Shown here: piece after piece, positions 27,143 to 62,684 of the stretch
Numbering within the stretch: position 1 is the stretch's first letter
How the letters are laid out: the number at the start of each line of letters is the position of its first letter
Source: Dehalococcoidia bacterium
GTDB taxonomy: Bacteria > Chloroflexota > Dehalococcoidia > Lucifugimonadales > Australimonadaceae
Reading direction: 5' to 3'
DNA: 64,000 nt
NCBI GenBank assembly: GCA_965248455.1
Contig: OZ252105.1
Location: forward strand, 200,993-264,992
The notes under the pieces: model-generated
Seen by the model: the letters and a program-made list of their open reading frames with translations, nothing else
Told to the model about the DNA's origin: nothing
The model's database searches: none
Translations under genes and position numbers: made by a program

Positions 27143-28495
27143 ATGCGACTACGACTAAATGGGTGGACGGCCGCCTTCGCGGCTGGAGCAGCGATGTTGC
27201 TCGTGCTGGCCGCTTGCGGCGGCGATGACCCCACCGCGGCGCCAGCTGCGACGTCGACACCGACGCCGGAAGCGATGATGGAGGCGACAGCGACGCCTGA
27301 CGCGATGGTGGCGACGGCAGCGCCGACGGCAGCACCGGCAGGGGCGACAGCCGCGCCAGCTGCGACGGCAGGACCGACAGCAGCGCCAACAGCAGCGCCG
27401 ACGGCAGCCCCAACGGCAGTGCCCGCGGTTCCCGACCCGGCGGTCACGTTTGAAGGGAGGACCATCCGCATCGTGGCGAACTCGTCTCCGGGCGGCGGCA
27501 CGGACACGCAGGGGCGCGTTATGGCGGCGTTCATGAGCCAGTACATACCGGGCAACCCGCGCGTGGTGTTCACGAACCAGCCGAACAAGCCACTGGAGTA
27601 CATTTTCGCAGCGACAGAAGCGCCCAAGGATGGCACGTACATCTCCTGGAACAGCTCGCCGCAGTTGAATTACGGCTTCAATGCGGACACGAAGTTCATC
27701 AAACGCAGCACGTTCGAGCCTCTGGGCTCGACCATCGATCCGACCCGCGCATGGATAACGTATGACGCGGTGGGCAACCTGGGTCCAAGCGCAGCTACGA
27801 ACTGCCTTTGGGACTACTCCGGCATGAGCAGCACGGGCGGCGGCACGCATGGCGAATTCCTGCTGGCCGATGAACTCTCCGACATCGCCCAGGGCAACCC
27901 CACGCTGTTGTCGACGGTGTACGCGTCCGAGCAGTTGGACATCCCGTTCCGCTTCTTCGGTTTCACCACTGTTGACACGAATGCGTTGTTCCTGATGTGG
28001 GCGCGTGGAGATGTCAACAGCACCGTGCAGCCCAGCTACTGGCACCGGTTCCCGCTGGAGAACCCGGGCTGGTTGGAAACCGGCTTCGTCCGGCAGTTGG
28101 CGGGCATGGGCCCTGGCACCATGAAGCCCAACTCGCTGGGTCCACCGCAGTGCGGCGATATGCGCGATTACCTCAACGATGAGCAGAAGTTCATCTACAA
28201 CTCCATGATCGGCCCGCCGAATTACGCATCGAAGGCGCTTTGGCTGCCGCCGGGCACACCGGACAACATCGCCGACACGCTTTCAGCGGCGTTCGAAACA
28301 GCGTTGACGCAAGACGAAGAACTGATTCGGAAGTATGCGGGAGTAGCGGGCGAGAGCCCCGGTTGGATCGGCCGTGACGAACTGACTGCGGCGACAATCG
28401 AGAACGAGATGCTGTACGAAGGCGCTCAAGCGGTTGTCGAGGCGCAGATGGATCGGCTGCTGCCCAAGTACTTCTCCGATTACATCGGCAGGTAG
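27143..28495 (+). CDS. tctC: tripartite tricarboxylate transporter substrate-binding lipoprotein (TctC/Bug family), copy 1
   Basis: Lipobox LVLAACGG, a long Ala/Pro/Thr linker, then IRIVANSSPGGGTDTQGR Bug-family motif. Confidence 0.75.
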   Translation: MRLRLNGWTAAFAAGAAMLLVLAACGGDDPTAAPAATSTPTPEAMMEATATPDAMVATAAPTAAPAGATAAPAATAGPTAAPTAAPTAAPTAVPAVPDPAVTFEGRTIRIVANSSPGGGTDTQGRVMAAFMSQYIPGNPRVVFTNQPNKPLEYIFAATEAPKDGTYISWNSSPQLNYGFNADTKFIKRSTFEPLGSTIDPTRAWITYDAVGNLGPSAATNCLWDYSGMSSTGGGTHGEFLLADELSDIAQGNPTLLSTVYASEQLDIPFRFFGFTTVDTNALFLMWARGDVNSTVQPSYWHRFPLENPGWLETGFVRQLAGMGPGTMKPNSLGPPQCGDMRDYLNDEQKFIYNSMIGPPNYASKALWLPPGTPDNIADTLSAAFETALTQDEELIRKYAGVAGESPGWIGRDELTAATIENEMLYEGAQAVVEAQMDRLLPKYFSDYIGR

Positions 28496-28583
28496 TACGA
28501 CCTAACGCAGTGGGGGAGCGGCGGCCCCTGGATACCGCAGGAGCCGCCCTTCCTCCGAAGTTGGAAGCTGCATATAAATAAAA

Positions 28584-28612
28584 TTGCAATATTCTGTGAT
28601 ATGATTTGTAAT
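28584..28612 (+). promoter_or_regulatory. candidate sigma70-type promoter inside an AT-rich island (about 28571-28650)
   Basis: TTGCAA, 17-nt spacer, TGTAAT. A second weaker candidate is TTGACG (28618), 18-nt spacer, GATAAA. Confidence 0.3.
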
Positions 28613-28780
28613 AAATCTTGACGATTGCGTATGCTCCTCGTGATAAACATGCACGGGTGTGCGGCTGACCCGTAAGGGTCATTCGTGCGTAGTGTCTTAT
28701 CCCTCAGGGAGGAAGGCGAAGAAACGCCGGTGGCTTACGTTCGAGTAGAGACGCACATGGAAAGCAACAGGGAGGATGAG

Positions 28781-30139
28781 ATGCGGATTACGACTAAATG
28801 GGTGGCCGCCTTCACGGCTGGCGCAGCGATGCTGCTCGTGCTGGCCGCTTGCGGCGGCGACGACCCCACCGCTGCGCCTGCTGCGACGGCGACGCCAACG
28901 CCGGAAGCGATGGCGGCGACAGCAGCGCCGACGGCAGCCCCGGCACCAGGGGCGACAGCAGCGCCAACGGCAGCCCCGGCACCAGGGGCGACAGCAGCGC
29001 CAGCTGCGACGGCAGCGCCCGCTGCGACGGCAGCGCCCGCTGCGACGGCAGCCCCAACGGCAGCGCCTGCGGTTCCAGACCCGGCGGTCACCTTTGAGGG
29101 CCGGACGGTTCGCATCGTGGCGAACTCGTCTCCCGGTGGTGGCACGGACACACAGGGGCGCGTCTTGGCGGCATTCATGAGTAAGTACATCCCCGGCAAC
29201 CCGCGCGTGGTGTTCACGAACCAGCCGAACAAGCCGCTGGAATACATCTACTCAGCGACGGAAGCGCCCAAGGATGGCACGTACATCTCCTGGAACAGCA
29301 CGCCCCAGTTGGACTTCGGCTTCAATGAGAGCACGCAGTTCATCAGGCGCAGCACGTTCGAACCCATCGGTTCCACGATCGACCCGACGCGCAGTTGGAT
29401 GACGTACGATCCGGTAGGCAACCTGGGCCCCAGCGCGGCCAACAGCTGCATCTGGGACTACTCCGGCATGAGCAGCACGGGCGGCGGGAACCATGGCGAG
29501 TTCCTGCTGGCAGACGAACTCTCCGACATCGCTGAGGGCAATCCCACGCTGTTGGCCACGGTGTATGCGTCTGAGCAGTTGGACATTCCGTTCCGCTACT
29601 TCGGATTCACCACTGTTGACACGAACGCGGTGCGCACGATGTGGGCACGCGGAGACATCAACTCCACGGTGCGGTCCAGCCTCTGGTACCGCTTCCCCGT
29701 GGAGAACCCGGACTGGATTCCTTCCGGCCTGATGCGCGTGATGGCGGGCATGGGCCCGGGCATGTTGCGGGCTAATGCACAGACCGAACCGCACTGCCCC
29801 GACGTGCGCGGACAGTTCGACGACGACCAGACCTTTATCTACAACTCACTGATCGGCCCGACGAACTACGCGTCGAAGGCGCTTTGGCTGCCGCCCGGCA
29901 CACCGGAAAATATCGCGGACACGCTGACGGCGGCGTTCGAGACGGCGCTGACGCAGGATCAGGACTTGATTCAGAAGTACGCCGGAGTCGCGGGCGAAAG
30001 CCCCGGCTGGATCGGCCGTGCCGAGTTGAAGGCCGCGACGATCGAAAACGAGATGCTGTTCGAAGGCGCTCAAGCGGTTGTCGTGGCGCAGATGGAGCGG
30101 TTGCTGCCGAAGTACTTCTCCGACTACATCAGCGGATAG
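28781..30139 (+). CDS. tctC: TctC/Bug family substrate-binding lipoprotein, copy 2 (tandem paralog)
   Basis: Same architecture as copy 1. GGGAGGA RBS before ATG 28781. The linker is built from nucleotide tandem repeats. Confidence 0.75.
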   Translation: MRITTKWVAAFTAGAAMLLVLAACGGDDPTAAPAATATPTPEAMAATAAPTAAPAPGATAAPTAAPAPGATAAPAATAAPAATAAPAATAAPTAAPAVPDPAVTFEGRTVRIVANSSPGGGTDTQGRVLAAFMSKYIPGNPRVVFTNQPNKPLEYIYSATEAPKDGTYISWNSTPQLDFGFNESTQFIRRSTFEPIGSTIDPTRSWMTYDPVGNLGPSAANSCIWDYSGMSSTGGGNHGEFLLADELSDIAEGNPTLLATVYASEQLDIPFRYFGFTTVDTNAVRTMWARGDINSTVRSSLWYRFPVENPDWIPSGLMRVMAGMGPGMLRANAQTEPHCPDVRGQFDDDQTFIYNSLIGPTNYASKALWLPPGTPENIADTLTAAFETALTQDQDLIQKYAGVAGESPGWIGRAELKAATIENEMLFEGAQAVVVAQMERLLPKYFSDYISG

Positions 30140-32864: not shown

Positions 32865-33326
32865 ATGAGAATTACCATGAAGCTGGCGCTGGCTGCATTC
32901 GTAGTGGGGCTGGTAGCTGCGCTGGTCGGCTGGGTGTGGCTCGGCGAGGTGGGGGAACTGAAATCGCGCACGGAACGCTCGGTTGCCACCTACCAGGACG
33001 GGATGCTGATCTACACGACGCTCGCCGGAACAGAGGCCACGATTCCGGTGTGGGACGAGTGCAAGAATCTGGGCCCGCGTCCTGCGAACGAGTGCATTGC
33101 GTACTACGAGAACGGCGATGAAGTAGTCATTACGTACGATTCGGCAGAGCCCACGCACGCGTGGCGTGGCCCGACGCCTAACGGCGTGCCAGCAACCGGG
33201 TTGTTCTGGGGCGGCATCGCGCTGGGGATATTCGCGCTGTTCGGAATCTGGTTCACGTCGTCGTGGTACCGGCGACTCAGCCGCCCCACCATCGCAGGGC
33301 AGGGCGCTCCTCCTGTGGAGGATTAG
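32865..33326 (+). CDS. hypothetical membrane protein (DUF3592-like topology)
   Basis: N-terminal TM, soluble middle part, C-terminal TM (LFWGGIALGIFALFGIWF). Confidence 0.45.
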   Translation: MRITMKLALAAFVVGLVAALVGWVWLGEVGELKSRTERSVATYQDGMLIYTTLAGTEATIPVWDECKNLGPRPANECIAYYENGDEVVITYDSAEPTHAWRGPTPNGVPATGLFWGGIALGIFALFGIWFTSSWYRRLSRPTIAGQGAPPVED

Positions 33327-34885
33327 TCCAGCACCTCCGCCGTCTGCTTCTCGATCTCAGGGAAGAGCAGCGACTTCACCACGACAGGGACGACGCGCGC
33401 CGGGTAGATCATCTCCCCGATGTCTATGTAATCGAACTCCTGCAGGAACAGGTTGTCTATGGAGATGACCGGGTTCGTGATGCCAATGTCCTTCGTGATG
33501 GTTTCGCCGATGAGCTTGGCGAAATCGCCCGTGAACACCAGCATCAGCGGCGACCCGTTCGCCAGCGACCGGGGCATCGCCGCAACGATGCCGTCCGCGA
33601 TCTTCCGTATCTGCGAGTAGCGGGGCAGACCATCCCAATCGAAAGCGAGCGCCACCTGCTGCCCTCCCTCGGTGAGGTCCTGACGCTCGAACGCCTGGTT
33701 GACCAGTGCGGCAACCTCCTCCGGCTGCACTTCGTGATCCTCCGACAGCTTCGAGATGAGCACCGGCACGTTCCGGTACGGCAGAAGCGACGTGTCGGAG
33801 ATGGAGAGCGTGTTGCCGCTCAACTGAACCGTGAATTGCGATGCACCTATCACCGTAGCCCTGATGCGCTCCGTCGCGGGCTGTACGGGCGCGGGAAGGG
33901 CGTTCTCGGCCATCTTACGGCTCACTGCGTCGGCCAACGCCATGGCCAGATCGCCGAAGTCTTTGGTCTCGTTACCGTAGATGTACTCCGAGACGCCGCC
34001 GGAGAAGACGAGAGCGTCGTAGGCCATGTCGGCTGGCATATCGGGCGTCAGGAGCAGCGCCTGCGTCAGTTCGGAGCGCGGACGGCCCTGGATGACGTCG
34101 ATGATGACTTCTCCGAGCGCGTCAGCGATAGCGATCCTGCTCTGATCCGACAGCGGTTCGCCGAAGCTCAGGGGAACGCTGATGGCGTCGGCGGTGGTGT
34201 GCGCCGCTTCCTCGACGCGCGTGATGCTGCCGTCAGCGCCGGTGGCGACGAGCCTGCCGCCGACGTTGACCGTGGCGGTCTGCGCGACGCGTCCGTCCTT
34301 GACCAGTGCGAATTTCGTCGTGCCCCCTCCGATGTCCACGTTGAGCACCGTCTGATGCGGATTGCGCGAGAGCTTCACCGCGCCGGAGCCGTTCGCTGCC
34401 AGCACCGATTCCAGGTTGTGGCCGGCTGAGGCGCACACGAACTTGCCCGCGTGATCGGCGAAGATGTCGGCTATGGCGTGAGCGTTGCGACGCTTGATCG
34501 CCTCGCCGGTGAGGATGATAGCTCCGCTGTCGATGTCCTGCGCCTGAAATCCCGCCTCTGCGTAGGAGTCAGCGATGAACCCTTCGAGGAGTTGTGTGTT
34601 GATGAGGTTGTCGTGCGTGTACGGCGTCAGCAGGATGGGCGACTTGTAGAGCGTCTGCCGGTCGACGACGACGTACCTGCTCGAGTGCATCTCCTGCACG
34701 CGCTGCAGCGTGATGTTGGAGAACATCAGGTGCGAGGTTGACGACCCGATGTCTATCCCGACGGTCTTGAGTTCGATGACCTCGTGATGGTAGTAGTCGT
34801 GGTCCGGGTTGTTCAGCTCGATAGAGAGCTTCGCCAGCCGCTCTTCGTCGGGATCGTGGGCATGCGCCCAGGGCTCATCGTGCAT
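33323..34885 (-). CDS. EutA-like ASKHA-superfamily ATPase, copy 1
   Basis: 520 aa. VGIDIGSSTSH and NVDIGGGTTKF phosphate-binding motifs. His/Asp-rich N-terminus MHDEPWAHAHDPDEE. Confidence 0.8.
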   Translation of the reverse strand: MHDEPWAHAHDPDEERLAKLSIELNNPDHDYYHHEVIELKTVGIDIGSSTSHLMFSNITLQRVQEMHSSRYVVVDRQTLYKSPILLTPYTHDNLINTQLLEGFIADSYAEAGFQAQDIDSGAIILTGEAIKRRNAHAIADIFADHAGKFVCASAGHNLESVLAANGSGAVKLSRNPHQTVLNVDIGGGTTKFALVKDGRVAQTATVNVGGRLVATGADGSITRVEEAAHTTADAISVPLSFGEPLSDQSRIAIADALGEVIIDVIQGRPRSELTQALLLTPDMPADMAYDALVFSGGVSEYIYGNETKDFGDLAMALADAVSRKMAENALPAPVQPATERIRATVIGASQFTVQLSGNTLSISDTSLLPYRNVPVLISKLSEDHEVQPEEVAALVNQAFERQDLTEGGQQVALAFDWDGLPRYSQIRKIADGIVAAMPRSLANGSPLMLVFTGDFAKLIGETITKDIGITNPVISIDNLFLQEFDYIDIGEMIYPARVVPVVVKSLLFPEIEKQTAEVLD

Positions 34886-34984
34886 CGTGTGCGTTCCTTT
34901 CCGTATTCCGATTGCGTTTCGGGACGCACGGGGCTGGCGCGCGTTGAACGCACGTCAGTTCCCACCGGCGCTGCGCGCCCGCTG

Positions 34985-36079
34985 TTAGTGGTCAGCGACG
35001 CCTGTGTAGTCCCATTGATAGTTGACGTCGCGGTATGCCCCGTCCGGCATCCCGCACGGGATGTCGCGCTTGGCGAGCTCCTCCTCGAACATCTGCCGGA
35101 TCCACGGCTCCTCGTTCGGGTATTCGATCTGGTCTTCGGACAGATTCTGCACCTGCTCCGACATGCCCATGAACTGGTTGGGCGGATGGAGCGCGAGGTA
35201 GCGCCCGTGGGTCGCGCCCAGGTTGAAATGCTGATGGAACCAACGGTCGGGGGGAACGAAGCAACTGGCCTCGTGCCACGGCACCACGACCTTCTCCTTG
35301 CCTTCCTGCCACATGATCGAATAGCCCTCGCCGCCGGGGATGACGATGACGCGCCCCGGCCCGTGGCGGTGGCCCTTCTTGTAGGTGCCGGTAGGGAAGA
35401 CGGACATGTGCGCATGCAGCTCCGACCCCGGAATCTGCATGTAGACCGACCGGTTGACGGAGCCTCGCCCTGGCCGGTGCATCAGCTTGTCCCAGACGCC
35501 CATGTCAGGGAAGAAGTTGCCGAACCAGAGGGTGCGCCCGGCGGCCCCTTCCGCGACGTGTTCCTGTGTCGTCGCCTCGGCTTCGGAGTAGAACTCCTGG
35601 CCGCTGAGCACGTCCTCCTCGAACGGGTTGTTGAAGAAGAAGGCGGGGTTCGGAATCGCGGACATCGCGATGGGCAGGTAGTTGTAGTGCAGCAGCCGCA
35701 CCGGACGGTCGCCGTGCATATTGTTGAACTGCGCCCACGAGTTGCGGGGGATGAGGAAGAGCGAGCGCGGAGACCACTCGAACGTGTGGCGCTCGCTGCC
35801 TTCGCTGCTCCAAACGACGGTTGTGCCCTGACCGCTCAGCACGTAGACCATCTCGTCTATCGCCTGCTTGAAGGGTTTGAGCGTACCGCCGGGCGGAATC
35901 TCCTGCACGCGCCCCTCCACGACGCCGGGCATACCCTCCAGCTGGATGAACGCAGCATCGCACTCGCGGAGGCTCCATGGTCCGACTTCCACGTTGCGGA
36001 GGTCTTCGAGGTAGTAACCCCGATGCACAGGGACGCCTTGCTCATTCATCCATCGGTCGTAGGTGAAATCGTTGGCCAT
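34985..36079 (-). CDS. bicupin protein, copy 1 (unknown function)
   Basis: 364 aa with two cupin barrels. The C-terminal barrel has LHAHM, KKGHRHGPG and WFHQHFN. GGAGGAG RBS. Confidence 0.8.
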   Translation of the reverse strand: MANDFTYDRWMNEQGVPVHRGYYLEDLRNVEVGPWSLRECDAAFIQLEGMPGVVEGRVQEIPPGGTLKPFKQAIDEMVYVLSGQGTTVVWSSEGSERHTFEWSPRSLFLIPRNSWAQFNNMHGDRPVRLLHYNYLPIAMSAIPNPAFFFNNPFEEDVLSGQEFYSEAEATTQEHVAEGAAGRTLWFGNFFPDMGVWDKLMHRPGRGSVNRSVYMQIPGSELHAHMSVFPTGTYKKGHRHGPGRVIVIPGGEGYSIMWQEGKEKVVVPWHEASCFVPPDRWFHQHFNLGATHGRYLALHPPNQFMGMSEQVQNLSEDQIEYPNEEPWIRQMFEEELAKRDIPCGMPDGAYRDVNYQWDYTGVADH

Positions 36080-37859: not shown

Positions 37860-38783
37860 ATGCCCATCACGCTCATGGCGGATCATGAATACGCCGCCGA
37901 ATACCTCGCGAACGGCTCTATCAAGGTCGAAGGATTCGACGTCGAGACGGTCTGGCCGGAGGGAGGCTCAGCGTCCGTCTACGCCAAACTGTTCACGGAA
38001 CCTCCCTACGATGTGATGGTGGTGCCCATCACGAACTTCCTCATCGCGGTTGACCTCGGCAGGCCGTTGGCGGGCATCCCCGTGTTCCCGGACGTGTCGT
38101 TTGCGCACACCGGCGCGCAGGTGAATACGAACGCCGGTATCACGAGCCCCAAGGATCTCGAAGGCAAGCGCGTCGGTGTTCGCGGGTGGGGCTTCAACCC
38201 TGGGACATGGCTGCGAGGCGCGCTCGCGGATGTCTACGGCCTCGACGCTACACGGGTGCATTGGGTGGAGGCGGAGCCCAACTCACTGATGAACGCGGAC
38301 TACCCCCGCGATTCCCGGTTCAGCGTCTCCAAGGGCGGCGACCAGATCGCGGAGCTGGAGAGCGGCGCGTTGGACGCGGTGCTGTTCGACCGCTCCGGCC
38401 CGCCGCTCGCAGGAAACCGCGCCCGGCTGTTCGACGACCCTTTGGCCGCAGCGCTGGAATATCACGCGCAGACGAGCGTGCTGCCGGTGAACGTGATGCT
38501 GGTGGCGAAGCGGGATGTGCTCGATGCGAACCCCGGCCTCGCACAGGCGGTCGTCGAGGCGTCGGACAAAGCGCGTGAAGCGTATTACGCCCACGCTTCC
38601 GACGACGATGAGCATATGGGCTTGCCCATCGGCTGGCTGCGGCAGCACGGCCTGTTCCCGCACGAGAACGGGTTGGAGCGCAACCGCAACGCCATCGAGA
38701 CCATCGTCCGCTACGCGGCAGACCTCGGCCTCATCAGCCGTCGCTTTACGCCGGAGGAGCTGTTCTTCGACGGCGTGCGTTAG
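37860..38783 (+). CDS. 4,5-dihydroxyphthalate decarboxylase-like (PBP-fold) protein, copy 1
   Basis: IPVFPDVSFAHTG…GITSPKDLEGKRVGV pattern is shared with copy 2 (57360-58337) and with my recollection of PhtD/Pht5-type decarboxylases. Confidence 0.65.
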   Translation: MPITLMADHEYAAEYLANGSIKVEGFDVETVWPEGGSASVYAKLFTEPPYDVMVVPITNFLIAVDLGRPLAGIPVFPDVSFAHTGAQVNTNAGITSPKDLEGKRVGVRGWGFNPGTWLRGALADVYGLDATRVHWVEAEPNSLMNADYPRDSRFSVSKGGDQIAELESGALDAVLFDRSGPPLAGNRARLFDDPLAAALEYHAQTSVLPVNVMLVAKRDVLDANPGLAQAVVEASDKAREAYYAHASDDDEHMGLPIGWLRQHGLFPHENGLERNRNAIETIVRYAADLGLISRRFTPEELFFDGVR

Positions 38784-38882
38784 GAGTGGCACGGGCGATA
38801 TATAGCAAAGTTAGGGAGTTTATCAAAATTCGATAACTTTCCTAACCTTACTAACTTCCATAACTTCGCTAACTTTGCTATA
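38739..38882 (+). repeat. direct repeat L: last 14 codons of the decarboxylase-like gene + TAG + AT-rich palindrome with 5 x 9-nt TAACTTNNC units
   Basis: tatagcaaagttag (38801-38814) pairs with ctaactttgctata (38869-38882). 9-mers at 38834-38878. Matches 40048-40164. Confidence 0.8.
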
Positions 38883-38892
38883 AACTGGATGC

Positions 38893-40092
38893 ATGGATCC
38901 TATACGTAACCCGTACGCGCCTGGCGCGGGAACACAGCCTCCGGAACTGGCAGGCCGCCAGGAGATACGCGAAGCCGCGCGTATCGCGCTGGAACGGATT
39001 CGGAGGGGACGTCCCAACAAGAGCATGATGATGGTGGGCTTGCGGGGCGTGGGGAAAACGGTGTTGCTCGACCGGGTGAGGCTGGACGCAGAGGCCGCCG
39101 GGATCGTCGCCTTGCGTGTGGAAGCCGCTGATGACCGCTCGCTCCCATCGATGCTTGCGCCGGAATTGCGCGCAGCCTTGTTGCGTCTGTCGATGAAGGA
39201 TGCCGCCAGGGAGTTAGCGCAACGCGCTTTGAGAGGTCTCGCGGGGTTCGTCGGCGCGCTCAGAGTGAGGTACCACGACATCGAGGTCGGCCTGGACTTG
39301 GAACCGGAACCGGGGTTGGCGGACAACGGGGACTTGGAGATTGACCTGCAGAGCCTGTTCGAAGCGGTAGGGGCTGCCGCAAAGGCGGATGGAACCTGCA
39401 TAACACTCTTCGTCGACGAACTCCAGTATGTGAAGGTGAACGAACTCGCGGCGCTGATTACCGCATTGCACCGGATGGCGCAGCGGCAGCTCCCTGTCAC
39501 TATGGTTGGGGCGGGCTTGCCCCAGGTGCGGGGCCGCATGGGGAATGCGAAATCCTACGCAGAGCGGCTTTTCGATTTCCCCGAAATCGGGCCGTTATCC
39601 CCCCAAGATGCCAAACTGGCCATCGTCAAGCCCGCTGAGGACGAGGGCGTGACGATAGAGGAGCCCGCCCTCGACGCCATCGTTGCCAGAACGGGGTGCT
39701 ACCCTTACTTCCTACAAGAGTGGGGAAAACATCTGTGGGATGCCGCCGAAAGTTCCCCTATCACCATCGCCAGTGTGGAGACTGCCTCTGCGCAGGCCAT
39801 AGCCGATCTGGATGCGAGCTTCTTCATGGTCAGGTTCGACCGGCTGACCCAGTCAGAGAAGAGATACCTCCGAGCGATGGCCAGCCTTGGCGATGGGATC
39901 CACCGCTCCGGTGACATCGCCCAAGCGATGGGCCGCAGCGTCAGTTCCCTCGCGCCCACTCGCAGCCAGCTCATCAACAAGGGCATGGTCTGGAGTCCGA
40001 GCCATGGAGATACCGCCTTCACCGTCCCCATGTTCGACGAGTTCATGCGGCGCATCATGCCGGAGGAACGGCTCTTCGATGGCGCTGAATAG
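38893..40092 (+). CDS. AAA+ ATPase with C-terminal winged-helix-like domain
   Basis: Walker A GLRGVGKT and Walker B LFVDELQ. The last 14 aa RRIMPEERLFDGAE resemble RRFTPEELFFDGVR at the end of the preceding gene. Confidence 0.75.
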   Translation: MDPIRNPYAPGAGTQPPELAGRQEIREAARIALERIRRGRPNKSMMMVGLRGVGKTVLLDRVRLDAEAAGIVALRVEAADDRSLPSMLAPELRAALLRLSMKDAARELAQRALRGLAGFVGALRVRYHDIEVGLDLEPEPGLADNGDLEIDLQSLFEAVGAAAKADGTCITLFVDELQYVKVNELAALITALHRMAQRQLPVTMVGAGLPQVRGRMGNAKSYAERLFDFPEIGPLSPQDAKLAIVKPAEDEGVTIEEPALDAIVARTGCYPYFLQEWGKHLWDAAESSPITIASVETASAQAIADLDASFFMVRFDRLTQSEKRYLRAMASLGDGIHRSGDIAQAMGRSVSSLAPTRSQLINKGMVWSPSHGDTAFTVPMFDEFMRRIMPEERLFDGAE

Positions 40093-40164
40093 GAGTGGCG
40101 CAGTACATTTATAGTAAAGTTAGGGAAGTTAGCAAAATTCGATAAACTACCTAACTTTGCTATA
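40048..40164 (+). repeat. direct repeat R: copy of the decarboxylase-like 3' end + TAG + AT-rich palindrome with 2 x 9-nt units
   Basis: 32 of 45 coding nt identical to 38739-38783 by hand. TAGGAGTGGC is shared. Palindrome arms at 40110-40123 and 40151-40164. 27 nt (3 units) shorter than copy L. Confidence 0.8.
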
Positions 40165-40211
40165 AATGGCGTTATACCTCCGCACGCAGCACATGTAACC
40201 GACGGCGCGCG

Positions 40212-40805
40212 TTAACGCAGGAGCGCCTGTCCGGCTGCAACTGCGGCTTCCCATTCCGGCGTTCCGAGCAGCTCCGGGAGACCCAGCGGCTCCGCAGGAG
40301 GGAAGTTGGCGTTTCCCAGCATGTACTCCAGCCATATGACGTCTCTCCACGCTCCAAGCTTGTAGCCGACCTCGTGAAATGTGCCGATCTGCTCGAAGCC
40401 CATGGCCTCGTGTAGTCCGATGCTTGCAGGGTTCGGCTCCGTGACTCCGGCGTAGGCGCGGCGGTATCCGAGCAGGCGGAGCGTTCCCAAGAGAGCGATG
40501 TACAACGCTGTGCCGATGCCCGTGCGGTGGTGCTTCGGGTGGATATAGATGGTGGTCTCGACAGACCAGCGGTAGGCAGGGGAGACGCGGTGCGGGCTGG
40601 CGTAGGCGTAGCCGGTCACGAGGCCATCGCGCTCGCAGACGAACCATGGCAACCGATCGATTGACCTCTGGATGCGGTCGCGGAAATCAGCGCCGGTGGG
40701 AGCTGTGTAGACGAAGGTTATCGCCGTATCGCGGGCGTAAGGCTCGTAGATCGCCGCGATCTGGTCGGCGTCGTCTTCGCGAACGAGCCGGAGGGTAGTT
40801 GGCAT
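40212..40805 (-). CDS. GNAT N-acetyltransferase (phosphinothricin/YncA-like)
   Basis: IHPKHHRTGIGTALY…GLHEAMGFEQIG is the acetyl-CoA-binding region. Confidence 0.8.
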   Translation of the reverse strand: MPTTLRLVREDDADQIAAIYEPYARDTAITFVYTAPTGADFRDRIQRSIDRLPWFVCERDGLVTGYAYASPHRVSPAYRWSVETTIYIHPKHHRTGIGTALYIALLGTLRLLGYRRAYAGVTEPNPASIGLHEAMGFEQIGTFHEVGYKLGAWRDVIWLEYMLGNANFPPAEPLGLPELLGTPEWEAAVAAGQALLR

Positions 40806-40808
40806 AGC

Positions 40809-42125
40809 CTACGCATCGCGGACGGCTGCGACTCCGGCGCGGAATGCTTCGATGGTGCGCTCGATGTCCTCGTCGGTGTGGCAGACGCCGACGTACAGCT
40901 TGCCGGAGGGCTTGAAGACGCCGTGCTCCAGCAGCGTGTTGTCGAATATGCGGTTGAGCGTCTTGTCCACCAGCGTGGAGCGGTAGTCGACGATGGGTTG
41001 CTCGGTGAAGTAGACATCGAACATCACGTCGACGCCGCTCACGACCGCAGGAACCTCCGCCTCGTCGAAGAGGCGTTGGAGCGTGTTGCGGAGCCTTGCA
41101 GCGCGCTCGTGGTACGCCCCGTACGTCCCGGGTACGCTCAGGACATCCAGCGTTGCGAGGCCTGCCGCCGCCGCGACCGGGTTGCCGTTCAGCGTGCCTG
41201 TCTGCGGCACGTAGCGGTCAGCGGGCGCAGTGCGAGGGTCGTACGCTTCCAGCAGGTCGCGCCGTCCAACGACCGCTGCCAGGGGGAAGCCGCCCCCCAC
41301 GATCTTGCCGATGGCCGCGATGTCCGGCACGACGCCGTAGTGTTCCTGCGCGCCGCCGTAGGCGAGGCGGAAGCTCGTGACGACCTCGTCGAAGATGAGC
41401 AGAACGCCGTAGCGCTCCGTCAGCGTGCGCAGTCCGGCGAGGAATCCCGGCTGCGGTGCGATGACGCGCTGCACCGGCTCCACGATGACCGCCGCGAGTT
41501 CGTCGTGGTACCGGTCGAGCAGGTCCTCCACCATGTTGAGGTCGTTGAATGGCGCGACAAGCACCGTCTCCTGGACGGCCTTGGGTATGCCCGCGGAGCT
41601 CGGTTCACCGTGAGGGAACTCCGTCTTCCCGGAAGGCGACAGGCTCATCAGTGAGTAGTCGTGCATCCCGTGGAAGCCGCCCTCGAATTTGAGGATCTTC
41701 TCCCGTTTGCGGAACGAACGCGCGATCTTCAACGCGTTGTAGGTCGCCTCGGTGCCGGTGCTGACGAAGCGCACCTGCTCCGCGCACGGCATCGCTTCGA
41801 TGATGCGCTCGGCCAGTGCGATAGCGTACTCGTTCTGCGTGAAGAACGTCGTGCCCTTGGCCATCGCCGCGCTTGCGGCTTCGATGACCTTGGGGTGGGC
41901 ATGGCCAAGCACCATCGGCCCCGACCCCAGCAGATAGTCGATGTAGGAGTTGCCGCTCATGTCGCTGATGTGCGACCCGTGGCCCTCGCGTACGACGAAC
42001 GCATAATCGTCATCGAGCCGCAGGTTCCCGAGCGTACCGCCGGGCAGCGCGCGCGCCGCTCTCGCGAGCATCTCTCGTTCTTCAGGTGTCCTGTTCAAGC
42101 GTGACAAGGGGCAACTCCTCTCCAT
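40809..42125 (-). CDS. class III aminotransferase / glutamate-1-semialdehyde aminomutase-like
   Basis: LPGGTLGN…YIDYLLGSGPMVLGHAHP…FVSTGTEAT…FDEVVTSFR motifs. Start uncertain. Confidence 0.8.
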   Translation of the reverse strand: MERSCPLSRLNRTPEEREMLARAARALPGGTLGNLRLDDDYAFVVREGHGSHISDMSGNSYIDYLLGSGPMVLGHAHPKVIEAASAAMAKGTTFFTQNEYAIALAERIIEAMPCAEQVRFVSTGTEATYNALKIARSFRKREKILKFEGGFHGMHDYSLMSLSPSGKTEFPHGEPSSAGIPKAVQETVLVAPFNDLNMVEDLLDRYHDELAAVIVEPVQRVIAPQPGFLAGLRTLTERYGVLLIFDEVVTSFRLAYGGAQEHYGVVPDIAAIGKIVGGGFPLAAVVGRRDLLEAYDPRTAPADRYVPQTGTLNGNPVAAAAGLATLDVLSVPGTYGAYHERAARLRNTLQRLFDEAEVPAVVSGVDVMFDVYFTEQPIVDYRSTLVDKTLNRIFDNTLLEHGVFKPSGKLYVGVCHTDEDIERTIEAFRAGVAAVRDA

Positions 42126-43215: not shown

Positions 43216-44736
43216 TCAACCCGACTGTGAGCGTAAGGAAAAGACGAGCGACTTGACCGTTACGGGGATAACCTCCGACGCGCCCATAGGCTTGCCGATG
43301 TCCACGTAGTCAAGGTCGCCGACCTCAATGCCGTCTATGGCGATGATAGCGCGATTGAAGTTCAACTCCTCACGGATGATGCCGCCGAGCGATTTGGCGA
43401 CGTCCACGTCAACGACGAGGAAAACGGGTGCTTCGGGCGGCTCGTCGGCGACCGTCTTGATGATCGACTCAGCAAGGCGGCGGATGTACCAGTAATCGGG
43501 TTGGCCGGCGATGGACATGGCGAGGACCATCGAGGAGGGCAGCCTGTCCATGTCGTACTTACCGACGCCTGCTGCGAGCGCGGCCTCCATCTCCTCCGCG
43601 CTTTGCTCCTTATTGATGAAGGCGCGTGCCACCTGTACGCCCCGGACGGGGAGCACGTCAGCGGTTGCGATGTAACTCGTGCTGCCGCTGGCCTGCAGCG
43701 TGTACTCGCCCGCGCCGATGACCGTAGCGCGGATGCCCTCCGCAGGGGTGATGAGCACGCCGGGCCGGAATGTTCCCATGGAGCGCTCGCGGACGATTCT
43801 GCCGAACCAAGGGCCTACGTCTCCGTACGACTCGCTCGTACGGTCGTAGACGTACTCCGAGACGCCGCCTGAATAGACGATATGGTCGATGTCGTGCAGG
43901 GACGATACGCGCAGGCCGTCGGTCAGCAGAAGGGACTCGGTAAGTGGGTCCACGTCGCCGCCGCTGATGACGTCGAACAGGATGTCGGTCATCCTGGCAA
44001 CGAATTGATCGCGCTGGGCCTCGGTCAGCTTGCCGCCGACCGCGACCTCGTGGCCGAGCGTCTTCATGATGGTGCGCGCGGGCTGTTCGACCCGCGTGAT
44101 CGTCATATCGTCGTCGTAGGCGATGAGCCGCGCGCCGATCTCGACCACCACCATCTGGGAGATCTCGCCGCCTTGGATGAGCGATATCTTGGTCGTTCCG
44201 CCGCCCATGTCTATGTCGAGCACGGAATTGGAGTGGCTCTTGGAGATGGCGACTGCGCCCGACCCGAAGGCCGCGAGGAGCGCCTCGTGCATCGGCCCTG
44301 CAGACGCGCAGATGAACCCGCCGGACTTTTCGGAGAAGTACTCCAGGATGGGCTGAGCGTTCTCCTTCTTGAGCGCCTCGCCCGTGATGACGACTGCGCC
44401 CGTATCGATGTCGCCCGGGGTGAACCCGGCCTCGCTATAGGACTCCTCGATGAACTGCTGCACGCTGTCCGTGTCGATGGCCGTGTTGGAGGAGTACGGC
44501 GTGAGCATGATGGGGGAGCGGTAGAGCACGTCACGGTTGGTGACGACGAACTTCGCCGACAGCCCCGCCCCCTCGCGCCGCAGGATGAGCCTGGAGAAGA
44601 TGGTGTGTGTGGTGGAGGAGCCTATATCAATGCCCACGCTGTGCAACGTGAACTTCTCGATTCCCTCGATGTCCTCGGCATCCTCGCTGTAGAGGAGGTC
44701 GAGGGCGTGTCCGTGATCGTGATCGTCGTCGTGCAT
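43216..44736 (-). CDS. EutA-like ASKHA-superfamily ATPase, copy 2
   Basis: 506 aa. VGIDIGSSTTH and DIDMGGGTTKI. His/Asp-rich N-terminus MHDDDHDHGHALD. Confidence 0.8.
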   Translation of the reverse strand: MHDDDHDHGHALDLLYSEDAEDIEGIEKFTLHSVGIDIGSSTTHTIFSRLILRREGAGLSAKFVVTNRDVLYRSPIMLTPYSSNTAIDTDSVQQFIEESYSEAGFTPGDIDTGAVVITGEALKKENAQPILEYFSEKSGGFICASAGPMHEALLAAFGSGAVAISKSHSNSVLDIDMGGGTTKISLIQGGEISQMVVVEIGARLIAYDDDMTITRVEQPARTIMKTLGHEVAVGGKLTEAQRDQFVARMTDILFDVISGGDVDPLTESLLLTDGLRVSSLHDIDHIVYSGGVSEYVYDRTSESYGDVGPWFGRIVRERSMGTFRPGVLITPAEGIRATVIGAGEYTLQASGSTSYIATADVLPVRGVQVARAFINKEQSAEEMEAALAAGVGKYDMDRLPSSMVLAMSIAGQPDYWYIRRLAESIIKTVADEPPEAPVFLVVDVDVAKSLGGIIREELNFNRAIIAIDGIEVGDLDYVDIGKPMGASEVIPVTVKSLVFSLRSQSG

Positions 44737-44781
44737 CCGTCAGTTATCCCTCAATGTTGATGTAGTGTCTGGCGGGGCGGG

Positions 44782-45882
44782 TCAGGCTTTCGCGGCCTCG
44801 TAGTTCCATTCGTACGCGTGGTTCTTGTAGGCCTCGTCCGGAATCTCGGAGGTCATGCCGCGCTCGGCCAGCTGACCCTCGAAGTATTCGCGTATCCACG
44901 GATCCTCGTCGGGGTACTCGATCTGGTCGCGTCCGCGGTCTTCTACCTTCTCGCTCATGCCCATGAACTGGTTGGGTGGATGGAGCGCGAGATAGCGTCC
45001 GTCCGCCTTGCCCAGGTTGAAGTGCTGATGGAACCAGCGGTCGGGCGGAACGAAGCAACTGGCCTCGCGCCAGTGGATAACGACCTTCTCCTGGCCTTCC
45101 TCCCACATGACGGAGTAGCCCTCGCCGCCGGGGATGACGATGACGCGTCCCGGGCCGTGGCGATGGCCCTTCTTATACGTTTTCGCGGGGAAGACGGACA
45201 TGTGCGCGTGCATCTCCGAGCCGGGGGATTGGATGAACACCACGTGCCCACCTGCGCCCCGTCCCCAGAAAGGCACGAGCTTGTCCCAGGCGGCCATGTC
45301 GGGGAAGAAGTTGCCGTGCCATACCTGGCGCCCGCGTCCGGCGAAAGCGCCCTCGCCCGCTTCCATGATGGCCTTTGCCTCGGAGTAGAACTCGTCGGTG
45401 CTGTGCAGGAAGCTACTCTCGGAGTAGGGGTTGTTGAAGAAGAATTCCGGGTCGGGCGTGGCGGACATCGCGATAGGCAGGTAGTTGTAATGGAGGAGCC
45501 GCGCGGGATTCTGGCCGTCCATGTTCGTGAGTTGGCAGTGCGAATTGCGCGGGATGAGGAAGAGGCTGCGCGTCGCCCACTCGAACGTCTTCTTGGGTCG
45601 TGAGTCGTCCGTCCATACGGTGGCGACGCCGCGCCCGCCGAGGACGTAGACCTGCTCGTCGACCGCGAGTTTCAGCGGCGGGAGCGTGCGGCCGGGCGGA
45701 ATCTCCTCGATGCGCCCCTCGACGACGCCTTCCATGCCTCGCAACTGCATGAACGCTGCATCGACCTGGCGGTCCTCCCACCAGCCGAGTTCAACGGTGC
45801 GCAGGTCTTCCACGTAGTAGCCCCGGTGAACGGGTATCCCCTGTGCTTCCATCCAGTCGTCATACGTGAAACGTCGTGCCAT
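44782..45882 (-). CDS. bicupin protein, copy 2
   Basis: 366 aa, collinear with 34985-36079. Same MHAHM, KKGHRHGPG and WFHQHFN motifs. Confidence 0.8.
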   Translation of the reverse strand: MARRFTYDDWMEAQGIPVHRGYYVEDLRTVELGWWEDRQVDAAFMQLRGMEGVVEGRIEEIPPGRTLPPLKLAVDEQVYVLGGRGVATVWTDDSRPKKTFEWATRSLFLIPRNSHCQLTNMDGQNPARLLHYNYLPIAMSATPDPEFFFNNPYSESSFLHSTDEFYSEAKAIMEAGEGAFAGRGRQVWHGNFFPDMAAWDKLVPFWGRGAGGHVVFIQSPGSEMHAHMSVFPAKTYKKGHRHGPGRVIVIPGGEGYSVMWEEGQEKVVIHWREASCFVPPDRWFHQHFNLGKADGRYLALHPPNQFMGMSEKVEDRGRDQIEYPDEDPWIREYFEGQLAERGMTSEIPDEAYKNHAYEWNYEAAKA

Positions 45883-48206: not shown

Positions 48207-48502
48207 CAGTGAATCCCGAAAACGAGGGACGGAGGCAACTGCAACGGCCCTTTCCCTACTTTGCGAATGAGGTACGGCCCGCGACCGAAGCGGCGCATCG
48301 CCACCCGGGCCGCATCCTCAAATGCCGGATAGGTTCCGATGAGTTCCCCGTCACGCACGATGACCCACTCGCCGAAGTGGTCGGTTTCCAGCAAGTCCTG
48401 CATCCGCTCGTAGGCGGCAATCTCTTCACTCAACTTGGCCATGGCGTCCCCCGCCGGTTGTTCGCCAACCTCATGGGTAGATTGCTGCCTATTAGCGCGC
48501 AT
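48206..48502 (-). CDS. small partner protein (DUF5678-like), copy 2
   Basis: …DHFGEWVIVRDGELIGTYPAFEDAARVAMRRF… aligns with copy 1. Start is either 48502 (overlapping the Rieske stop) or ATG 48442. Confidence 0.5.
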   Translation of the reverse strand: MRANRQQSTHEVGEQPAGDAMAKLSEEIAAYERMQDLLETDHFGEWVIVRDGELIGTYPAFEDAARVAMRRFGRGPYLIRKVGKGPLQLPPSLVFGIH

Positions 48503-49785
48503 CAGCCTTTTGCTGCTGCAGCCTCGCGTCTGTCCAGGATGGGGCTGTACATCGTGGCGGCACCCTGGCGAGAGGACGTGTCCACGTAGTTGTGCTGCTC
48601 CGTCATGAACGGGATGTAGGCGTTCTGCTCAGCGTCTCGGTAGACCTCCATGGGGTCTCCGCCGTCCTCGACGATGCGGATGTTGTCCTCCAGCATCTGC
48701 CGGAACATGATGATGCCCTTGTCGGAGCGTCCCAGATGCTCGCCGGTGCGGTCCGCGATATCGCCCTGCGTGATCCACGCAGCGGGGTCTTGCGAGGAAT
48801 TGCTGCGCAATTCCGGGTAGACCGGCTGACCATTCACGTCCAGCATGGGAACGGGCGGGCGGTAGAAGGGAATCTCCTCCGCTGTCTGTTCCTCGTCGCC
48901 TGCGACCATCGGGTAGCACGCCACCCACCAGTGGCCGGTCGTGTAGTCGTCGATGGGGGTGCGAATCTGGAACGCGGGGCCCATCGAGAAGCTGCCCCGG
49001 TACGTGCCGTCGGTGATGTTGAAGCCGTCGCCGCCCTGGCGCAGGTAGTTCGGGAAGATGATGGGGTGCCCATCCTTCCATTCGGTGTCTTCCTCGGAGC
49101 CGCCTTCCCAGATACGGCGCTTGATGATGCCGTGCTCGAACGCGTCGAAGTGGATGACCTTGTGAGGGCGGCGCGTACGCCGATCCTCATCGCCGTTCAT
49201 CTCTCGGATGAAGTTTGCCCACGCGACGTGCAGCCATTCGAGGTGTACGGGGTCGAGCGAGTTCTCCTGGCACTGCAGCCAGTTGCACGACAGTTCAGCG
49301 TAGCCGATGTCGCGCAGGACGCCGGTTGCGGAGAAGACATCGTAGTTGGGGATGAGCGGCACGGGCGTGGGGCCCATGTAGGCGAACACCAACCCAGCCT
49401 TCACCTCCACCGGGTACGCCTTCATCTTGATCTTGTCCTTGAACCGCGCCTCCGGGTCCTCCGTCTCCTCGTACGGCTGCTCGATGCACTGCCCCGTCTC
49501 GTCGTACAGCCATCCGTGATACGGACAGCGCAGACCATGCTCCTCCGGTATGCCGTAGATCACGTTCATGCGCCGGTGAGCGCAGTGCGGCTCCATGAGG
49601 CCGAATGTGCCGGAGCGATCCTTGTACAGGATGAGATCCTCGCCCAGGAGGCGCACCTTCATCGTCCACTTGTCGTTCATCTGCGAAACGGCGGCGATGG
49701 GGTGCCAGTAGCGGCGCATCAGCTCGCCCATCGGCGTGCCGGGGCCGACTCGGGTATAGCGGTCGTTAGCTTCCTGTGTCAGCAT
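48502..49785 (-). CDS. Rieske oxygenase alpha subunit, paralog 4 (intermediate subfamily)
   Basis: CAHRR...CPYHGW and NSLDPVHLEWLH. AAGGAGAG RBS. Confidence 0.9.
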   Translation of the reverse strand: MLTQEANDRYTRVGPGTPMGELMRRYWHPIAAVSQMNDKWTMKVRLLGEDLILYKDRSGTFGLMEPHCAHRRMNVIYGIPEEHGLRCPYHGWLYDETGQCIEQPYEETEDPEARFKDKIKMKAYPVEVKAGLVFAYMGPTPVPLIPNYDVFSATGVLRDIGYAELSCNWLQCQENSLDPVHLEWLHVAWANFIREMNGDEDRRTRRPHKVIHFDAFEHGIIKRRIWEGGSEEDTEWKDGHPIIFPNYLRQGGDGFNITDGTYRGSFSMGPAFQIRTPIDDYTTGHWWVACYPMVAGDEEQTAEEIPFYRPPVPMLDVNGQPVYPELRSNSSQDPAAWITQGDIADRTGEHLGRSDKGIIMFRQMLEDNIRIVEDGGDPMEVYRDAEQNAYIPFMTEQHNYVDTSSRQGAATMYSPILDRREAAAAKG

Positions 49786-49852
49786 GAGAATTCTCTCCTT
49801 GTGCTGTGGTTACCGGATTCTGTGCGATTTGGCCAGAGTATAGCAGTCCTTC

Positions 49853-51130
49853 CTATGCTCCCTGTGCTGCCCCCGCGGTGCGGGGTATGCTGCGCAGGCC
49901 TTCCCAGCTTTCCAACGTCTCATCCACGAGCGAGGCGACTGTTGGCTCGCCGGCCTCGACGAGCGTGTAGCCGAAGCGGCGGCGATTGCCGAACTTCACG
50001 TGCTCCAGCGGCAGGTGGATGGCCTCGTTCGTCGCAGGGTCGCGGAACGTGTTCATGGGGTCGCCCCCGTCCGCGACGAGTTGCGCCTGCTCCTGAAGGA
50101 GCTTGCGGAAGAGGATGATGCCCTTGTCCGACTCACCAAGATGTTCGAGGTTGCGCTTGGCGACGGGGCCCTGCGTTATCCACGCGAGGTAATCCTGGTT
50201 GAAGAGGATGTCGCTGATGTAGCGCCCCTCGTCGTTCTTGAGCGGGATGTAGCGGTAGGGGACGACGTCCTGACGCGGCGCCTGCGACCCAGGTGCGGGC
50301 CGCCAGGCGTAATAGGAGACGTGGTAGGTGTGCGTGTCGTCCGCGGGCACACGGAACTGGAAGGTGGAGCGTACCTCGTCCCCGACGAGCAGGATGTTGG
50401 GGAACATGATGGGGTGCCCCTCTGACCAGTCGTCGTCTTCCTCCGTGTAGCCTGCCTCGACGCGGCGCTTGATGATGCCGTGCTCGAAGACGTCGAATCC
50501 GATCTTCAGATGCGTGCCTCGCAGTTCAGGCAGTGCGTGGACGCCGTTGCGCTGCACGTTGGTGTAGTAGGCGTGGAGCCACTCGTTGTGAACCGGGTCG
50601 AGCGAGTTCTCCTGGCACTGCAGCCAGTTGCACGGGAGCTCCGATATGCAGACCTCCCGCACGGCGTTGTCCCAGGTCAGCTGCTCCCAACGCGGCAGCA
50701 GCGGCGCAGGCTGCGGACCCATGTATGCGAAGACGAGGCCTCCCAATTCCTGCACCGGGTAGCCCGCGATCTTCACCTTCTCCTTGAAACGTCCGTCCGG
50801 GTGCACCGTCTCCTCGAACGGCTGCTCTATGCACTGGCCGGTCTCGTCCATCATCCAGCCGTGGTACATGCAGCGCAGGCCGTGCTCCTCCGGTATGCCG
50901 TAGGTGAGATCGACCCTGCGATGCGGGCAGGCGCGCTCGATGAGTCCGAGCGTACCGGACTTGTCGCGATAGAGAACGAGATCTTCGTTGAGCAGGCGCA
51001 CTGGCTTGGTGGGGCGCTCGTTGAGTTCAGCGGTAGCGGCGATGGGATGCCAGTAGCGGCGCATCAGTTCGCCCATAGGCGTACCCTGACCTACTTTCGT
51101 AAGGTCTTCGTTGGCTTTGACGCTAAGCAT
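49853..51130 (-). CDS. Rieske oxygenase alpha subunit, paralog 5 (subfamily B)
   Basis: CPHRR...CMYHGW and NSLDPVHNEWLH. GGGAG RBS. Confidence 0.9.
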   Translation of the reverse strand: MLSVKANEDLTKVGQGTPMGELMRRYWHPIAATAELNERPTKPVRLLNEDLVLYRDKSGTLGLIERACPHRRVDLTYGIPEEHGLRCMYHGWMMDETGQCIEQPFEETVHPDGRFKEKVKIAGYPVQELGGLVFAYMGPQPAPLLPRWEQLTWDNAVREVCISELPCNWLQCQENSLDPVHNEWLHAYYTNVQRNGVHALPELRGTHLKIGFDVFEHGIIKRRVEAGYTEEDDDWSEGHPIMFPNILLVGDEVRSTFQFRVPADDTHTYHVSYYAWRPAPGSQAPRQDVVPYRYIPLKNDEGRYISDILFNQDYLAWITQGPVAKRNLEHLGESDKGIILFRKLLQEQAQLVADGGDPMNTFRDPATNEAIHLPLEHVKFGNRRRFGYTLVEAGEPTVASLVDETLESWEGLRSIPRTAGAAQGA

Positions 51131-51190
51131 GCATTATCTCCCGAGTCTGGAGTTAGGCGATAGCGTAGTTAAGCAGGAAGCACTCGTCAA

Positions 51191-51224
51191 GGAGAGAACG
51201 TGCGCGGGTCAGCGAACGTAGGCG
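51191..51224 (+). repeat. direct repeat flanking the higBA cassette (left)
   Basis: ggagag..g.gcgcggg.tc.gcgaacgtaggcg is shared with 51971-52006, with a perfect 13-nt core gcgaacgtaggcg. Confidence 0.45.
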
Positions 51225-51262
51225 TGGGATCGGGGATGATCATCGAAGTGTCATGAGCGGCT

Positions 51263-51586: not shown

Positions 51587-51615
51587 GTCCTCGCCCTCGC
51601 GGCCTTGCGCCGGAT

Positions 51616-62677: not shown

Positions 62678-62684
62678 CTTGTAT

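Follow-up and report, generated by a model that had tools for sequence, protein, structure and literature searches.

A 64,000-nt stretch of the genome of a Dehalococcoidia bacterium (contig OZ252105.1, positions 200,993 to 264,992; hereafter the window) was analyzed around a gene for a 399-aa AAA+ ATPase (38893–40092, plus strand), which is preceded by an AT-rich palindrome of 9-bp repeats (PAL) and bracketed by a 120-nt direct repeat. Comparison of the window with related loci (given L numbers) favors the interpretation, to which we assign a probability of roughly 60%, that gene and PAL form a mobile module that was inserted between two host genes and later affected by a secondary local duplication. 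The object of interest is the module rather than the 120-nt repeat, i.e., an ORC/Cdc6-fold ATPase with a co-varying dyad of 9-bp repeats that moves across phyla and vehicles.

A palindrome of 9-bp units accompanies the ATPase gene

PAL elements were surveyed at the loci of 77 ATPase relatives from species-representative genomes, with hosts among Dehalococcoidia and other Chloroflexota, Caldilineaceae, Latescibacterota, Binatia, Entotheonellaceae, Trueperaceae and Thermodesulfobacteriota. A PAL was located directly 5' of nearly every ATPase copy, 7–9 nt before the ATG, and the combination of PAL and ATPase gene was found in at least six phyla. The consensus is roughly TTATAGCrAArTTAGCnnnnTTATnn...TTGTAAnnnnGnTAAnnTTGCTATAAnnnnnnnnATG, in which the two arms are mutually inverted and built from consecutive 9-bp units that share a TTA(G/T/C) core, the TTA recurring with a 9-nt period. 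Arm identity was 0.71 within a locus versus 0.47 between loci. More distant homologues (50–68% identity) possess a PAL with the same phasing but other unit sequences, including those encoded on Pseudomonas, Azoarcus, Sphingobium, Pantoea, Pandoraea and Protochlamydia plasmids and on IMG/VR contigs. Additional PALs in the flanking DNA (549 kb in total) were confined to 8 of the 77 loci and to the vicinity of the ATPase ORF, at most 450 nt 5' or 270 nt 3' of it. A pattern scan of metagenomes yielded 81 matches, 72 of which were due to chance; six of eight credible PALs were followed by an ATPase gene and two were solo.

The left palindrome of the window (38801–38882, plus strand) consists of a left arm with the 9-bp units TATAGCAAA, GTTAGGGAG and TTTATCAAA and a right arm of five inverted TAACTTnnn units (38834–38880), reported by Tandem Repeats Finder as a period-9 array of 5.2 copies. 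The right palindrome (40110–40164, plus strand) is a duplicate whose right arm has just two 9-mers, and no gene comes after it. Both are defined by inverted repeats (I3 and I4) in the repeat search, and their arm motif, TATAG(C/T)AAAGTTAG, occurs exactly at 38801, 38869 (minus strand), 40110 and 40151 (minus strand) and nowhere else in the 64 kb; with a fifth match carrying three mismatches included, five matches were obtained where 0.9 were expected from shuffled sequence. As proposed in the initial annotation, five versus two right-arm units account for the 27-nt difference in length between the palindromes (82 and 55 nt). The 9-mers are also iteron-like, and their number changes fast: counted as left plus right arm, the left and right PALs hold 3+5 and 3+2 units in the window, compared with 3+3 and 4+2 in its 97% relative L001. 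Because the arms contain unequal numbers of units, an array of binding sites is favored over a strict hairpin.

An extended -10-like element (TGCTATAAA; 38876–38884, plus strand) lies in the last 9-mer of the left palindrome, and the ATG follows 8 nt further on without a Shine-Dalgarno sequence. This arrangement recurs among the 77 loci, as PAL contains a TGnTATAAA-like -10 element, the last TAYANH hexamer ends 7–9 nt before the ATG at 57 loci and is preceded by the TGn of an extended -10 at 32, and a Shine-Dalgarno-like tetramer was found at none. PAL is therefore read here, from sequence features, as the putative promoter and operator of the ATPase gene itself. Since the ATG lies 8 nt past the -10-like element and lacks a Shine-Dalgarno sequence, the predicted ATPase mRNA is probably leaderless.

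Downstream PAL copies like that of the window were also present at L049, L050, L052 and L035. Two or three PALs in tandem, separated by GC-rich spacers of 10–170 nt, were observed 5' of the ATPase gene at L045 (2585–2995), L022 (-441 to -19 from the ATG), L035, L050 and L052. At L071 and L035, a short sequence resembling an ATPase start, as judged by eye, follows the extra palindrome.

Sequence and structure analysis of the ATPase

The ATPase contains Walker A (GLRGVGKT) and Walker B (LFVDELQ) motifs and matched Pfam AAA_16 (PF13191) over residues 18–204 with 50.7 bits against a cut-off of 32.6. Scores for Pfam ATPase_2 (19.9 versus 33.2 bits) and the STAND NTPase model nSTAND1 (PF20703; 18.6 versus 27.1 bits) remained below threshold, and no sensor domain is seen in the structural model. 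The Orc1/Cdc6 initiator model TIGR02928 reached 18 bits against a cut-off of 181.3, with residues 15–63 alone aligning. No matches were retrieved when the single protein was searched against PDB sequences, a search of PHROGs returned nothing informative, and no significant match was found among the anti-phage components of PADLOC-DB v2 (best E-value 0.014). A family profile matched ORC4 in the PDB at 5e-9.

AlphaFold2 performed poorly with a shallow alignment (pLDDT 66), and the model used here was generated from a diverse alignment (pLDDT 96.5). It comprises an AAA+ base, a lid and a canonical C-terminal winged helix, assigned by DSSP to helices 320–331, 339–346 and 351–362 and strands 336–337, 366–367 and 373–376. 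Judged by the order of secondary structure in the model only, helices 84–99, 106–123 and 148–165 lie between strand 72–77 and the Walker B strand (170–175), an order with which the initiator-specific helical insertion (ISM) of Orc1/Cdc6 initiators, located between beta2 and beta3, would be compatible. The last ten residues are the sole low-confidence stretch (mean pLDDT 68). The best Foldseek matches in the PDB were Sulfolobus Cdc6-1 (2qby_A) and Aeropyrum ORC1 (2v1u_A), both bound to origin DNA, followed by the PF01637 ATPases Sso1545 (2fna) and PABY2304 (2qen), which gave the highest TM-scores (TMt 0.59–0.68), and then by RuvB and eukaryotic ORC subunits. According to the model, the ATPase is a protein of ORC/Cdc6-type architecture, yet it falls outside the Orc1/Cdc6 family by that family's own profile. 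It shares an xPxxFxGR-type N-terminal lead-in and the layout of AAA+ domain plus winged helix with the PF01637 ATPases, from which it is set apart by its subthreshold ATPase_2 match; we know of no conserved upstream palindrome for that group.

The family is large. Close relatives number over 8000, of which the top 120 share 75–97% identity, and a library clustered at 50% identity contains 1044 clusters at E<1e-30, nearly all of which are 385–405 aa long and align end to end. Database names were limited to "ATP-binding protein", "ATPase" and "AAA family ATPase". Compared with its relatives, the gene has a dN/dS of approximately 0.1, synonymous sites are saturated between phyla, and G+C content follows the host. 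The low dN/dS and the host-tracking G+C content therefore describe a constrained, long-resident gene and no decaying passenger.

Two further observations concern individual ATPase genes. In the close strain L156 (NMT1-like protein, encoded next to the ATPase, 96% identical), the ATPase gene (4000–5190) is interrupted by several frameshifts; of the palindromes, the right one is intact and the left one degraded. This state represents either real decay or long-read assembly error. In a 45% identical subfamily represented by metagenome contigs (L158–L167), the ATPase 3' end is overlapped over 17 nt by a conserved 56-aa ORF, which is absent from the clade of the window.

The module was inserted between two convergent host genes

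The host gene 5' of the insertion is NMT1/THI5-like (37860–38783, plus strand; Pfam NMT1, with relatives named 4,5-dihydroxyphthalate decarboxylase), and the convergent gene 3' of it encodes a GNAT acetyltransferase (40212–40805, minus strand; ArsN1/PPT-like by Pfam and NCBIfam). An empty site was found in L084–L086, where synteny is the same (EutA-cupin-GGT-NMT1-GNAT-aminotransferase), the NMT1-like protein is 81% identical, and the NMT1-like stop is followed by 6 nt and then the GNAT stop. In the window, the whole insert lies between two copies of a 15-nt target duplication. The left copy, cgacggcgtgcgtta (38768–38782, plus strand), consists of the final NMT1-like codons, which adjoin the GNAT stop in the empty site of L084. 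The right copy, cgacggcgcgcgtta (40200–40214, plus strand), is the original NMT1-like 3' end and overlaps the GNAT stop (40212–40214, minus strand) as in the empty site. The true boundaries of the insertion are this 15-nt duplication of the final NMT1-like codons.

The 120-nt repeat itself (38734–38853 versus 40043–40162) is ungapped with 75% identity, and a gapped alignment of the two copies gave 98 matches over 153 and 126 nt. Its left copy includes the final 14 codons of the NMT1-like gene (38739–38783, plus strand), and the two coding tails, CGTCGC..TAG (encoding RRFTPEELFFDGVR and stop) and CGGCGC..TAG (RRIMPEERLFDGAE and stop), are identical at 32 of 45 nt, a value reached by only 7 of 200,000 random pairs of 45-mers drawn from the window. 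Both stops belong to the conserved sequence TAGGAGTGGC: on the left, it is formed by TAG (38781–38783) and the first 7 nt (GAGTGGC) of a 17-nt spacer leading to the left palindrome (38784–38800, plus strand; homologous spacers of 14–15 nt in L018 and L045), and on the right by TAG (40090–40092) and the right copy of the spacer (40093–40109, plus strand). The composite repeat of gene tail, spacer and palindrome that the initial annotation described around the ATPase gene was thus confirmed in each of its parts, including the tail similarity under alignment testing.

The tail that ends the ATPase ORF, EERLFDGAE followed by a stop (40063–40092, plus strand), is borrowed from the NMT1-like gene, in agreement with the initial annotation. 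NMT1-like homologues (307 aa) all terminate in RRF(T/A)PEELFFxGA(R/E/K), which is native to this decarboxylase-like family because it is conserved there down to 50% identity, whereas the ATPase family ends in ..FDEFMRRIMPG(D/E)EW(R)... At L018, L088 and L045, the module occupies the same site with homologous spacers and no downstream palindrome, and the ATPases have family-typical ends (RRIMPGEEWRQDAGAR or RRIMPGDD before the stop), the ORF of L018 running into the right target copy (..DAGAR and stop). A copy of tail plus PAL behind the ATPase gene is found in the lineage of the window, L001 and L156 included. The junction of the copy falls within a chance similarity between cgcttcacGCCGGAGGAG and cgcatcatGCCGGgaGAGGAG (RRFTPEE and RRIMPGEE; microhomology RR(I/F)(M/T)PEE, 40048–40068), and only the ATPase residues after P390 are altered. 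The right PAL was copied from the local left flank, since the host gene tail accompanies it. The 120-nt repeat arose later as a secondary duplication, specific to this lineage and ordinary in kind. The idea of a cassette that duplicates gene 3' ends was upheld as a description of structure, but not in its view of the repeats as cassette ends or recombination sites: the downstream copy is secondary and missing at the same site in L018 and L088, and the true bracket is the outer 15-nt duplication.

These observations can be arranged into a sequence of events. A 1.3-kb, single-gene module, in which the ATPase ATG lies 8 nt past an AT-rich dyad of 9-bp-phased TTA(G/T) repeats, was inserted in an ancestor of this genome between the stops of the NMT1-like and GNAT genes, and approximately 15 nt of the 3' end of the NMT1-like gene were duplicated. 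The block of NMT1 tail, stop, spacer and PAL was then copied to the ATPase 3' end, solely in this lineage, which created the 120-nt direct repeat and replaced a non-conserved, disordered native end with a nine-residue borrowed tail. The copying may have occurred by unequal, microhomology-mediated recombination, the simplest route being a tandem duplication from which the second gene copy was subsequently lost. Finally, the number of 9-mers drifted, presumably by slippage, and differs even from the 97% relative. The ATPase probably binds its own 9-bp repeats via the winged helix; it would oligomerize in an ATP-dependent manner, control its own expression, and form on PAL a nucleoprotein complex for its actual job.

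Genomic contexts and flanking duplications

Among the 77 loci, 65 different neighbor signatures were counted, and no partner gene is conserved (the biggest neighbor cluster spans 10 of 77 loci). Contexts include positions between a methyltransferase and a UvrD-like helicase, next to tRNAs and beside a protein judged portal-like by inspection of its sequence alone; plasmids, viral contigs and prophage-like contigs are also represented. In Vibrio sp. HDW18 (L292; NZ_CP049914.1, 571402–572577), a 57% identical homologue resides in an integron cassette between two VCR (attC) repeats and has its own PAL-like, 9-bp-phased array inside the cassette. The ATPase is the only ORF of the module; no recombinase or transposase accompanied it at the loci surveyed, and no conserved termini were found at the 77 loci beyond PAL and approximately 25 nt past the stop. 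These mobilome settings are suggestive of a function in conflict or in maintenance on mobile DNA. Phage and plasmid morons and promoter-bearing integron cassettes are likewise single accessory genes that carry their own promoter between unrelated genes; the module differs in that its cis-element is conserved family-wide and resembles a cognate operator, not a mere promoter plus terminator.

Independent insertions are often flanked by duplications of host sequence, whose lengths vary widely: 12 nt in L035, 15 nt in the window, 19–26 nt in L072–L074, 25–39 nt in L054, 101 nt in L017 (a match to a sequence recognized by eye as a tRNA gene), 175 nt in L061 and 285 nt in L065. Such variability could reflect either illegitimate insertion filtered by selection for intact neighbors, given that almost no intergenic space exists, or an enzymatic staggered cut. 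IS1634/IS1549-type elements also generate long, variable direct repeats. Unlike these elements, and unlike insertion sequences or transposons in general, the module has neither a transposase nor terminal inverted repeats; its flanking duplications span 12–285 nt, and similar ones surround an unrelated HNH cargo gene.

This HNH endonuclease gene of L001 (5950–6775) lies between the GNAT and aminotransferase genes and is absent from the window, which has the empty site at 40800–40830. It has a perfect hairpin upstream (agcgtaacggtctactg..cagtagaccgttacgct), and on both sides of it stands the 23-nt sequence CATCACGCATCCCGGACGGCTGC, a perfect direct repeat composed of the 3' end of the aminotransferase gene and the start codon of GNAT. 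In L090 (3426–4549), another perfect 23-nt direct repeat derived from the aminotransferase 3' end, tcacgcgtcgcggacggcggcga, is found in nearly the same position and brackets a degenerate GNAT gene and an unrelated gene. The interval between the NMT1-like and aminotransferase genes looks like an insertion hot spot that received the ATPase gene, GNAT, HNH and gene X in different relatives.

Alternative explanations

The possibility that the module is an integrated minimal replicon or extra origin, with the ATPase as replication initiator and PAL as its origin as in archaeal oriC-cdc6, was considered and appears unlikely; the likeness to initiator or origin architectures pointed out in the initial annotation is one of structure. 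Archaeal Orc1/Cdc6 proteins share the AAA+ base, lid and winged helix, and their genes adjoin oriC, where inverted arrays of short repeats (ORB/mini-ORB) surround an AT-rich center, i.e., the layout seen here; in PAL, however, the repeats are 9 bp long and overlap the putative promoter at a fixed 7–9 nt from the ATG, as would suit a promoter or operator, and the AT-rich center is only approximately 10–14 bp, too short for an unwinding element. Origin-DNA-bound Orc1/Cdc6 proteins were the best structural matches and the family profile found ORC4, but the ATPase clearly failed the Orc1/Cdc6 family model (18 bits versus a cut-off of 181). The module does occur on plasmids, although these carry typed replicons and par genes of their own. 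Its hosts are otherwise bacteria, which to our knowledge lack an MCM partner, and viral contigs. A small circular replicon was rejected, as no circular forms were found and the short contigs contain neighboring genes and have no terminal overlaps. Nor does the module resemble an iteron-type plasmid replicon, since it encodes an AAA+ ATPase instead of a WH-WH Rep protein and has 9-bp inverted units instead of 17–22-bp direct iterons.

A further analogy is DnaA, an initiator-clade AAA+ protein that recognizes arrays of 9-bp DnaA boxes, including those in its own promoter; the ATPase would likewise have its binding sites in the promoter of its gene and be autoregulated. The TTATC of DnaA boxes is found in some PAL units. 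The ATPase has a winged helix where DnaA has domain IV, and PAL lacks the CACA half and has dyad symmetry.

It is also conceivable, if improbable, that PAL and the ORC-like ATPase constitute an autonomous element of a new kind, either an initiator with a mini-origin or a complex that promotes its own insertion. Such an element would explain the recurrent tandem and flanking PALs together with the variable-length duplications of neighboring gene ends.

A site-specific recombination cassette, in which PAL would serve as an att- or attC-like site and a gene between two PALs would be mobilized by a recombinase acting in trans, is very unlikely. PALs are present on both sides of the gene in five lineages and in tandem in others, but there is just one PAL at most copies, invariably located 5' of the gene, and the right PAL of the window came with a copy of the host tail. 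The module does appear in many contexts and two solo PALs were found, yet insertion junctions lie outside PAL, bracketed by the 12–285-nt host duplications, and no recombinase is associated. Compared with attC, the arm order of PAL is inverse (GTT..AAC; AAAGTTAG...CTAACTTT versus R''(RYYYAAC)...R'(GTTRRRY)) and its position is 5' of the ORF, and the Vibrio cassette is bounded by VCRs and not by PAL.

A generic terminator or REP-like palindrome that flanks the gene by accident, with a chance similarity of the tails, can be set aside. A terminator might be anticipated at the right copy, which has convergent genes on its two sides. However, PAL is limited to two occurrences in the 64 kb and is found only beside the ATPase gene in the 549 kb from relatives; it is AT-rich without a T-tract, was not scored as terminator-like, and is repeated next to a tail whose identity almost no random pair attains. 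The link between the palindrome and the AAA+/winged-helix gene made in the initial annotation is instead strengthened by the same element 5' of the ATPase genes of relatives. PAL belongs to the ATPase gene; it is not a terminator and very probably not a recombination site.

Several points weigh against the interpretation of a mobile gene-plus-PAL module with a secondary duplication. A strict scan of the region for sigma-70 promoters and terminators found no promoter and no terminator-like site, and the promoter assignment does not hold generally, as the TATA-like unit directly adjoins the ATG in some distant homologues. Extra PAL copies recur at 8 of the 77 loci, a hint that more than chance unequal crossing-over was involved. 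With only 75% identity between the repeat copies in a lineage whose members differ little, the duplication must be old or stem from a diverged allele. Nor is there an explanation for the 35 nt that separate the right palindrome from the right target copy (40165–40199, plus strand): 40165–40203 finds no support as the remnant of a second ATPase 5' end (1150 of 2000 shuffles score as high), and no trace of a tandem duplication followed by gene loss is demonstrable there. In addition, a defense role of the ATPase is a guess from context, given that no PADLOC match was obtained.

Other repeats and paralogues in the window

Two paralogous pairs of an EutA-like and a cupin gene, both encoded on the minus strand (33323–36079 and 43216–45882), flank the studied locus, an arrangement shared with L001 and L084. 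Four tandem paralogues of approximately 427 aa, with segments of 70–85% identity, are located at 48502–55258. A further two paralogues (27143–30139; bodies 82–86% identical) have a common GC-rich repeat array with start-to-start distances of 9–18 nt and are separated by a strongly AT-rich island (28541–28661).

An IS30-family transposase ORF starts at about 6436 (reading MGYTQVTIEERCEIARLRAAG...), with inverted ends of the GGATTCACA..GTGCAACA type, and lies between two AT-rich 51-nt repeats (6261–6321 and 7617–7667), each of which comprises three tandem 10-mers of differing sequence (AGTCTCATTT three times versus GGTTGCATTT three times). Families of GC-rich, REP-like hairpin repeats (e.g., CCCTCTCCCAGAGGGCGAGGG and GGGCCGTTCGCGAACGGCCC) were observed at 4804–4848, 6321–6365, 60855–60996, 62313–62680 and 63823–63981. 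An IS110-family transposase gene (62855–63793) is inserted among such hairpins, with repeats of 83–92 nt on either side.

Significance of the module

Neither the ATPase family nor its palindrome was described in the literature searched, which covered sponge symbiont ATPases, bacterial ORC/Cdc6 homologues, PF13191 in connection with defense, and integron cassettes, and the widespread gene-plus-palindrome module appears to be undescribed. ATPase identity across phyla reaches 73–81%, and the phyla that share the module look, from the taxa concerned, like ones that co-occur in sponge-associated communities. For genome annotation, the locus illustrates that the 3' end of a host gene can be grafted onto a neighboring ORF and that genes inserted into compact genomes of this kind typically lie between duplicated ends of neighboring genes. 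A family with a cognate, co-varying DNA element offers a directly testable protein-DNA pair for a bacterial ATPase of ORC/Cdc6 fold. This large, uncharacterized family, spread over phyla, plasmids, prophage-like contigs and an integron cassette, is a candidate for a mobilome function that has yet to be described.

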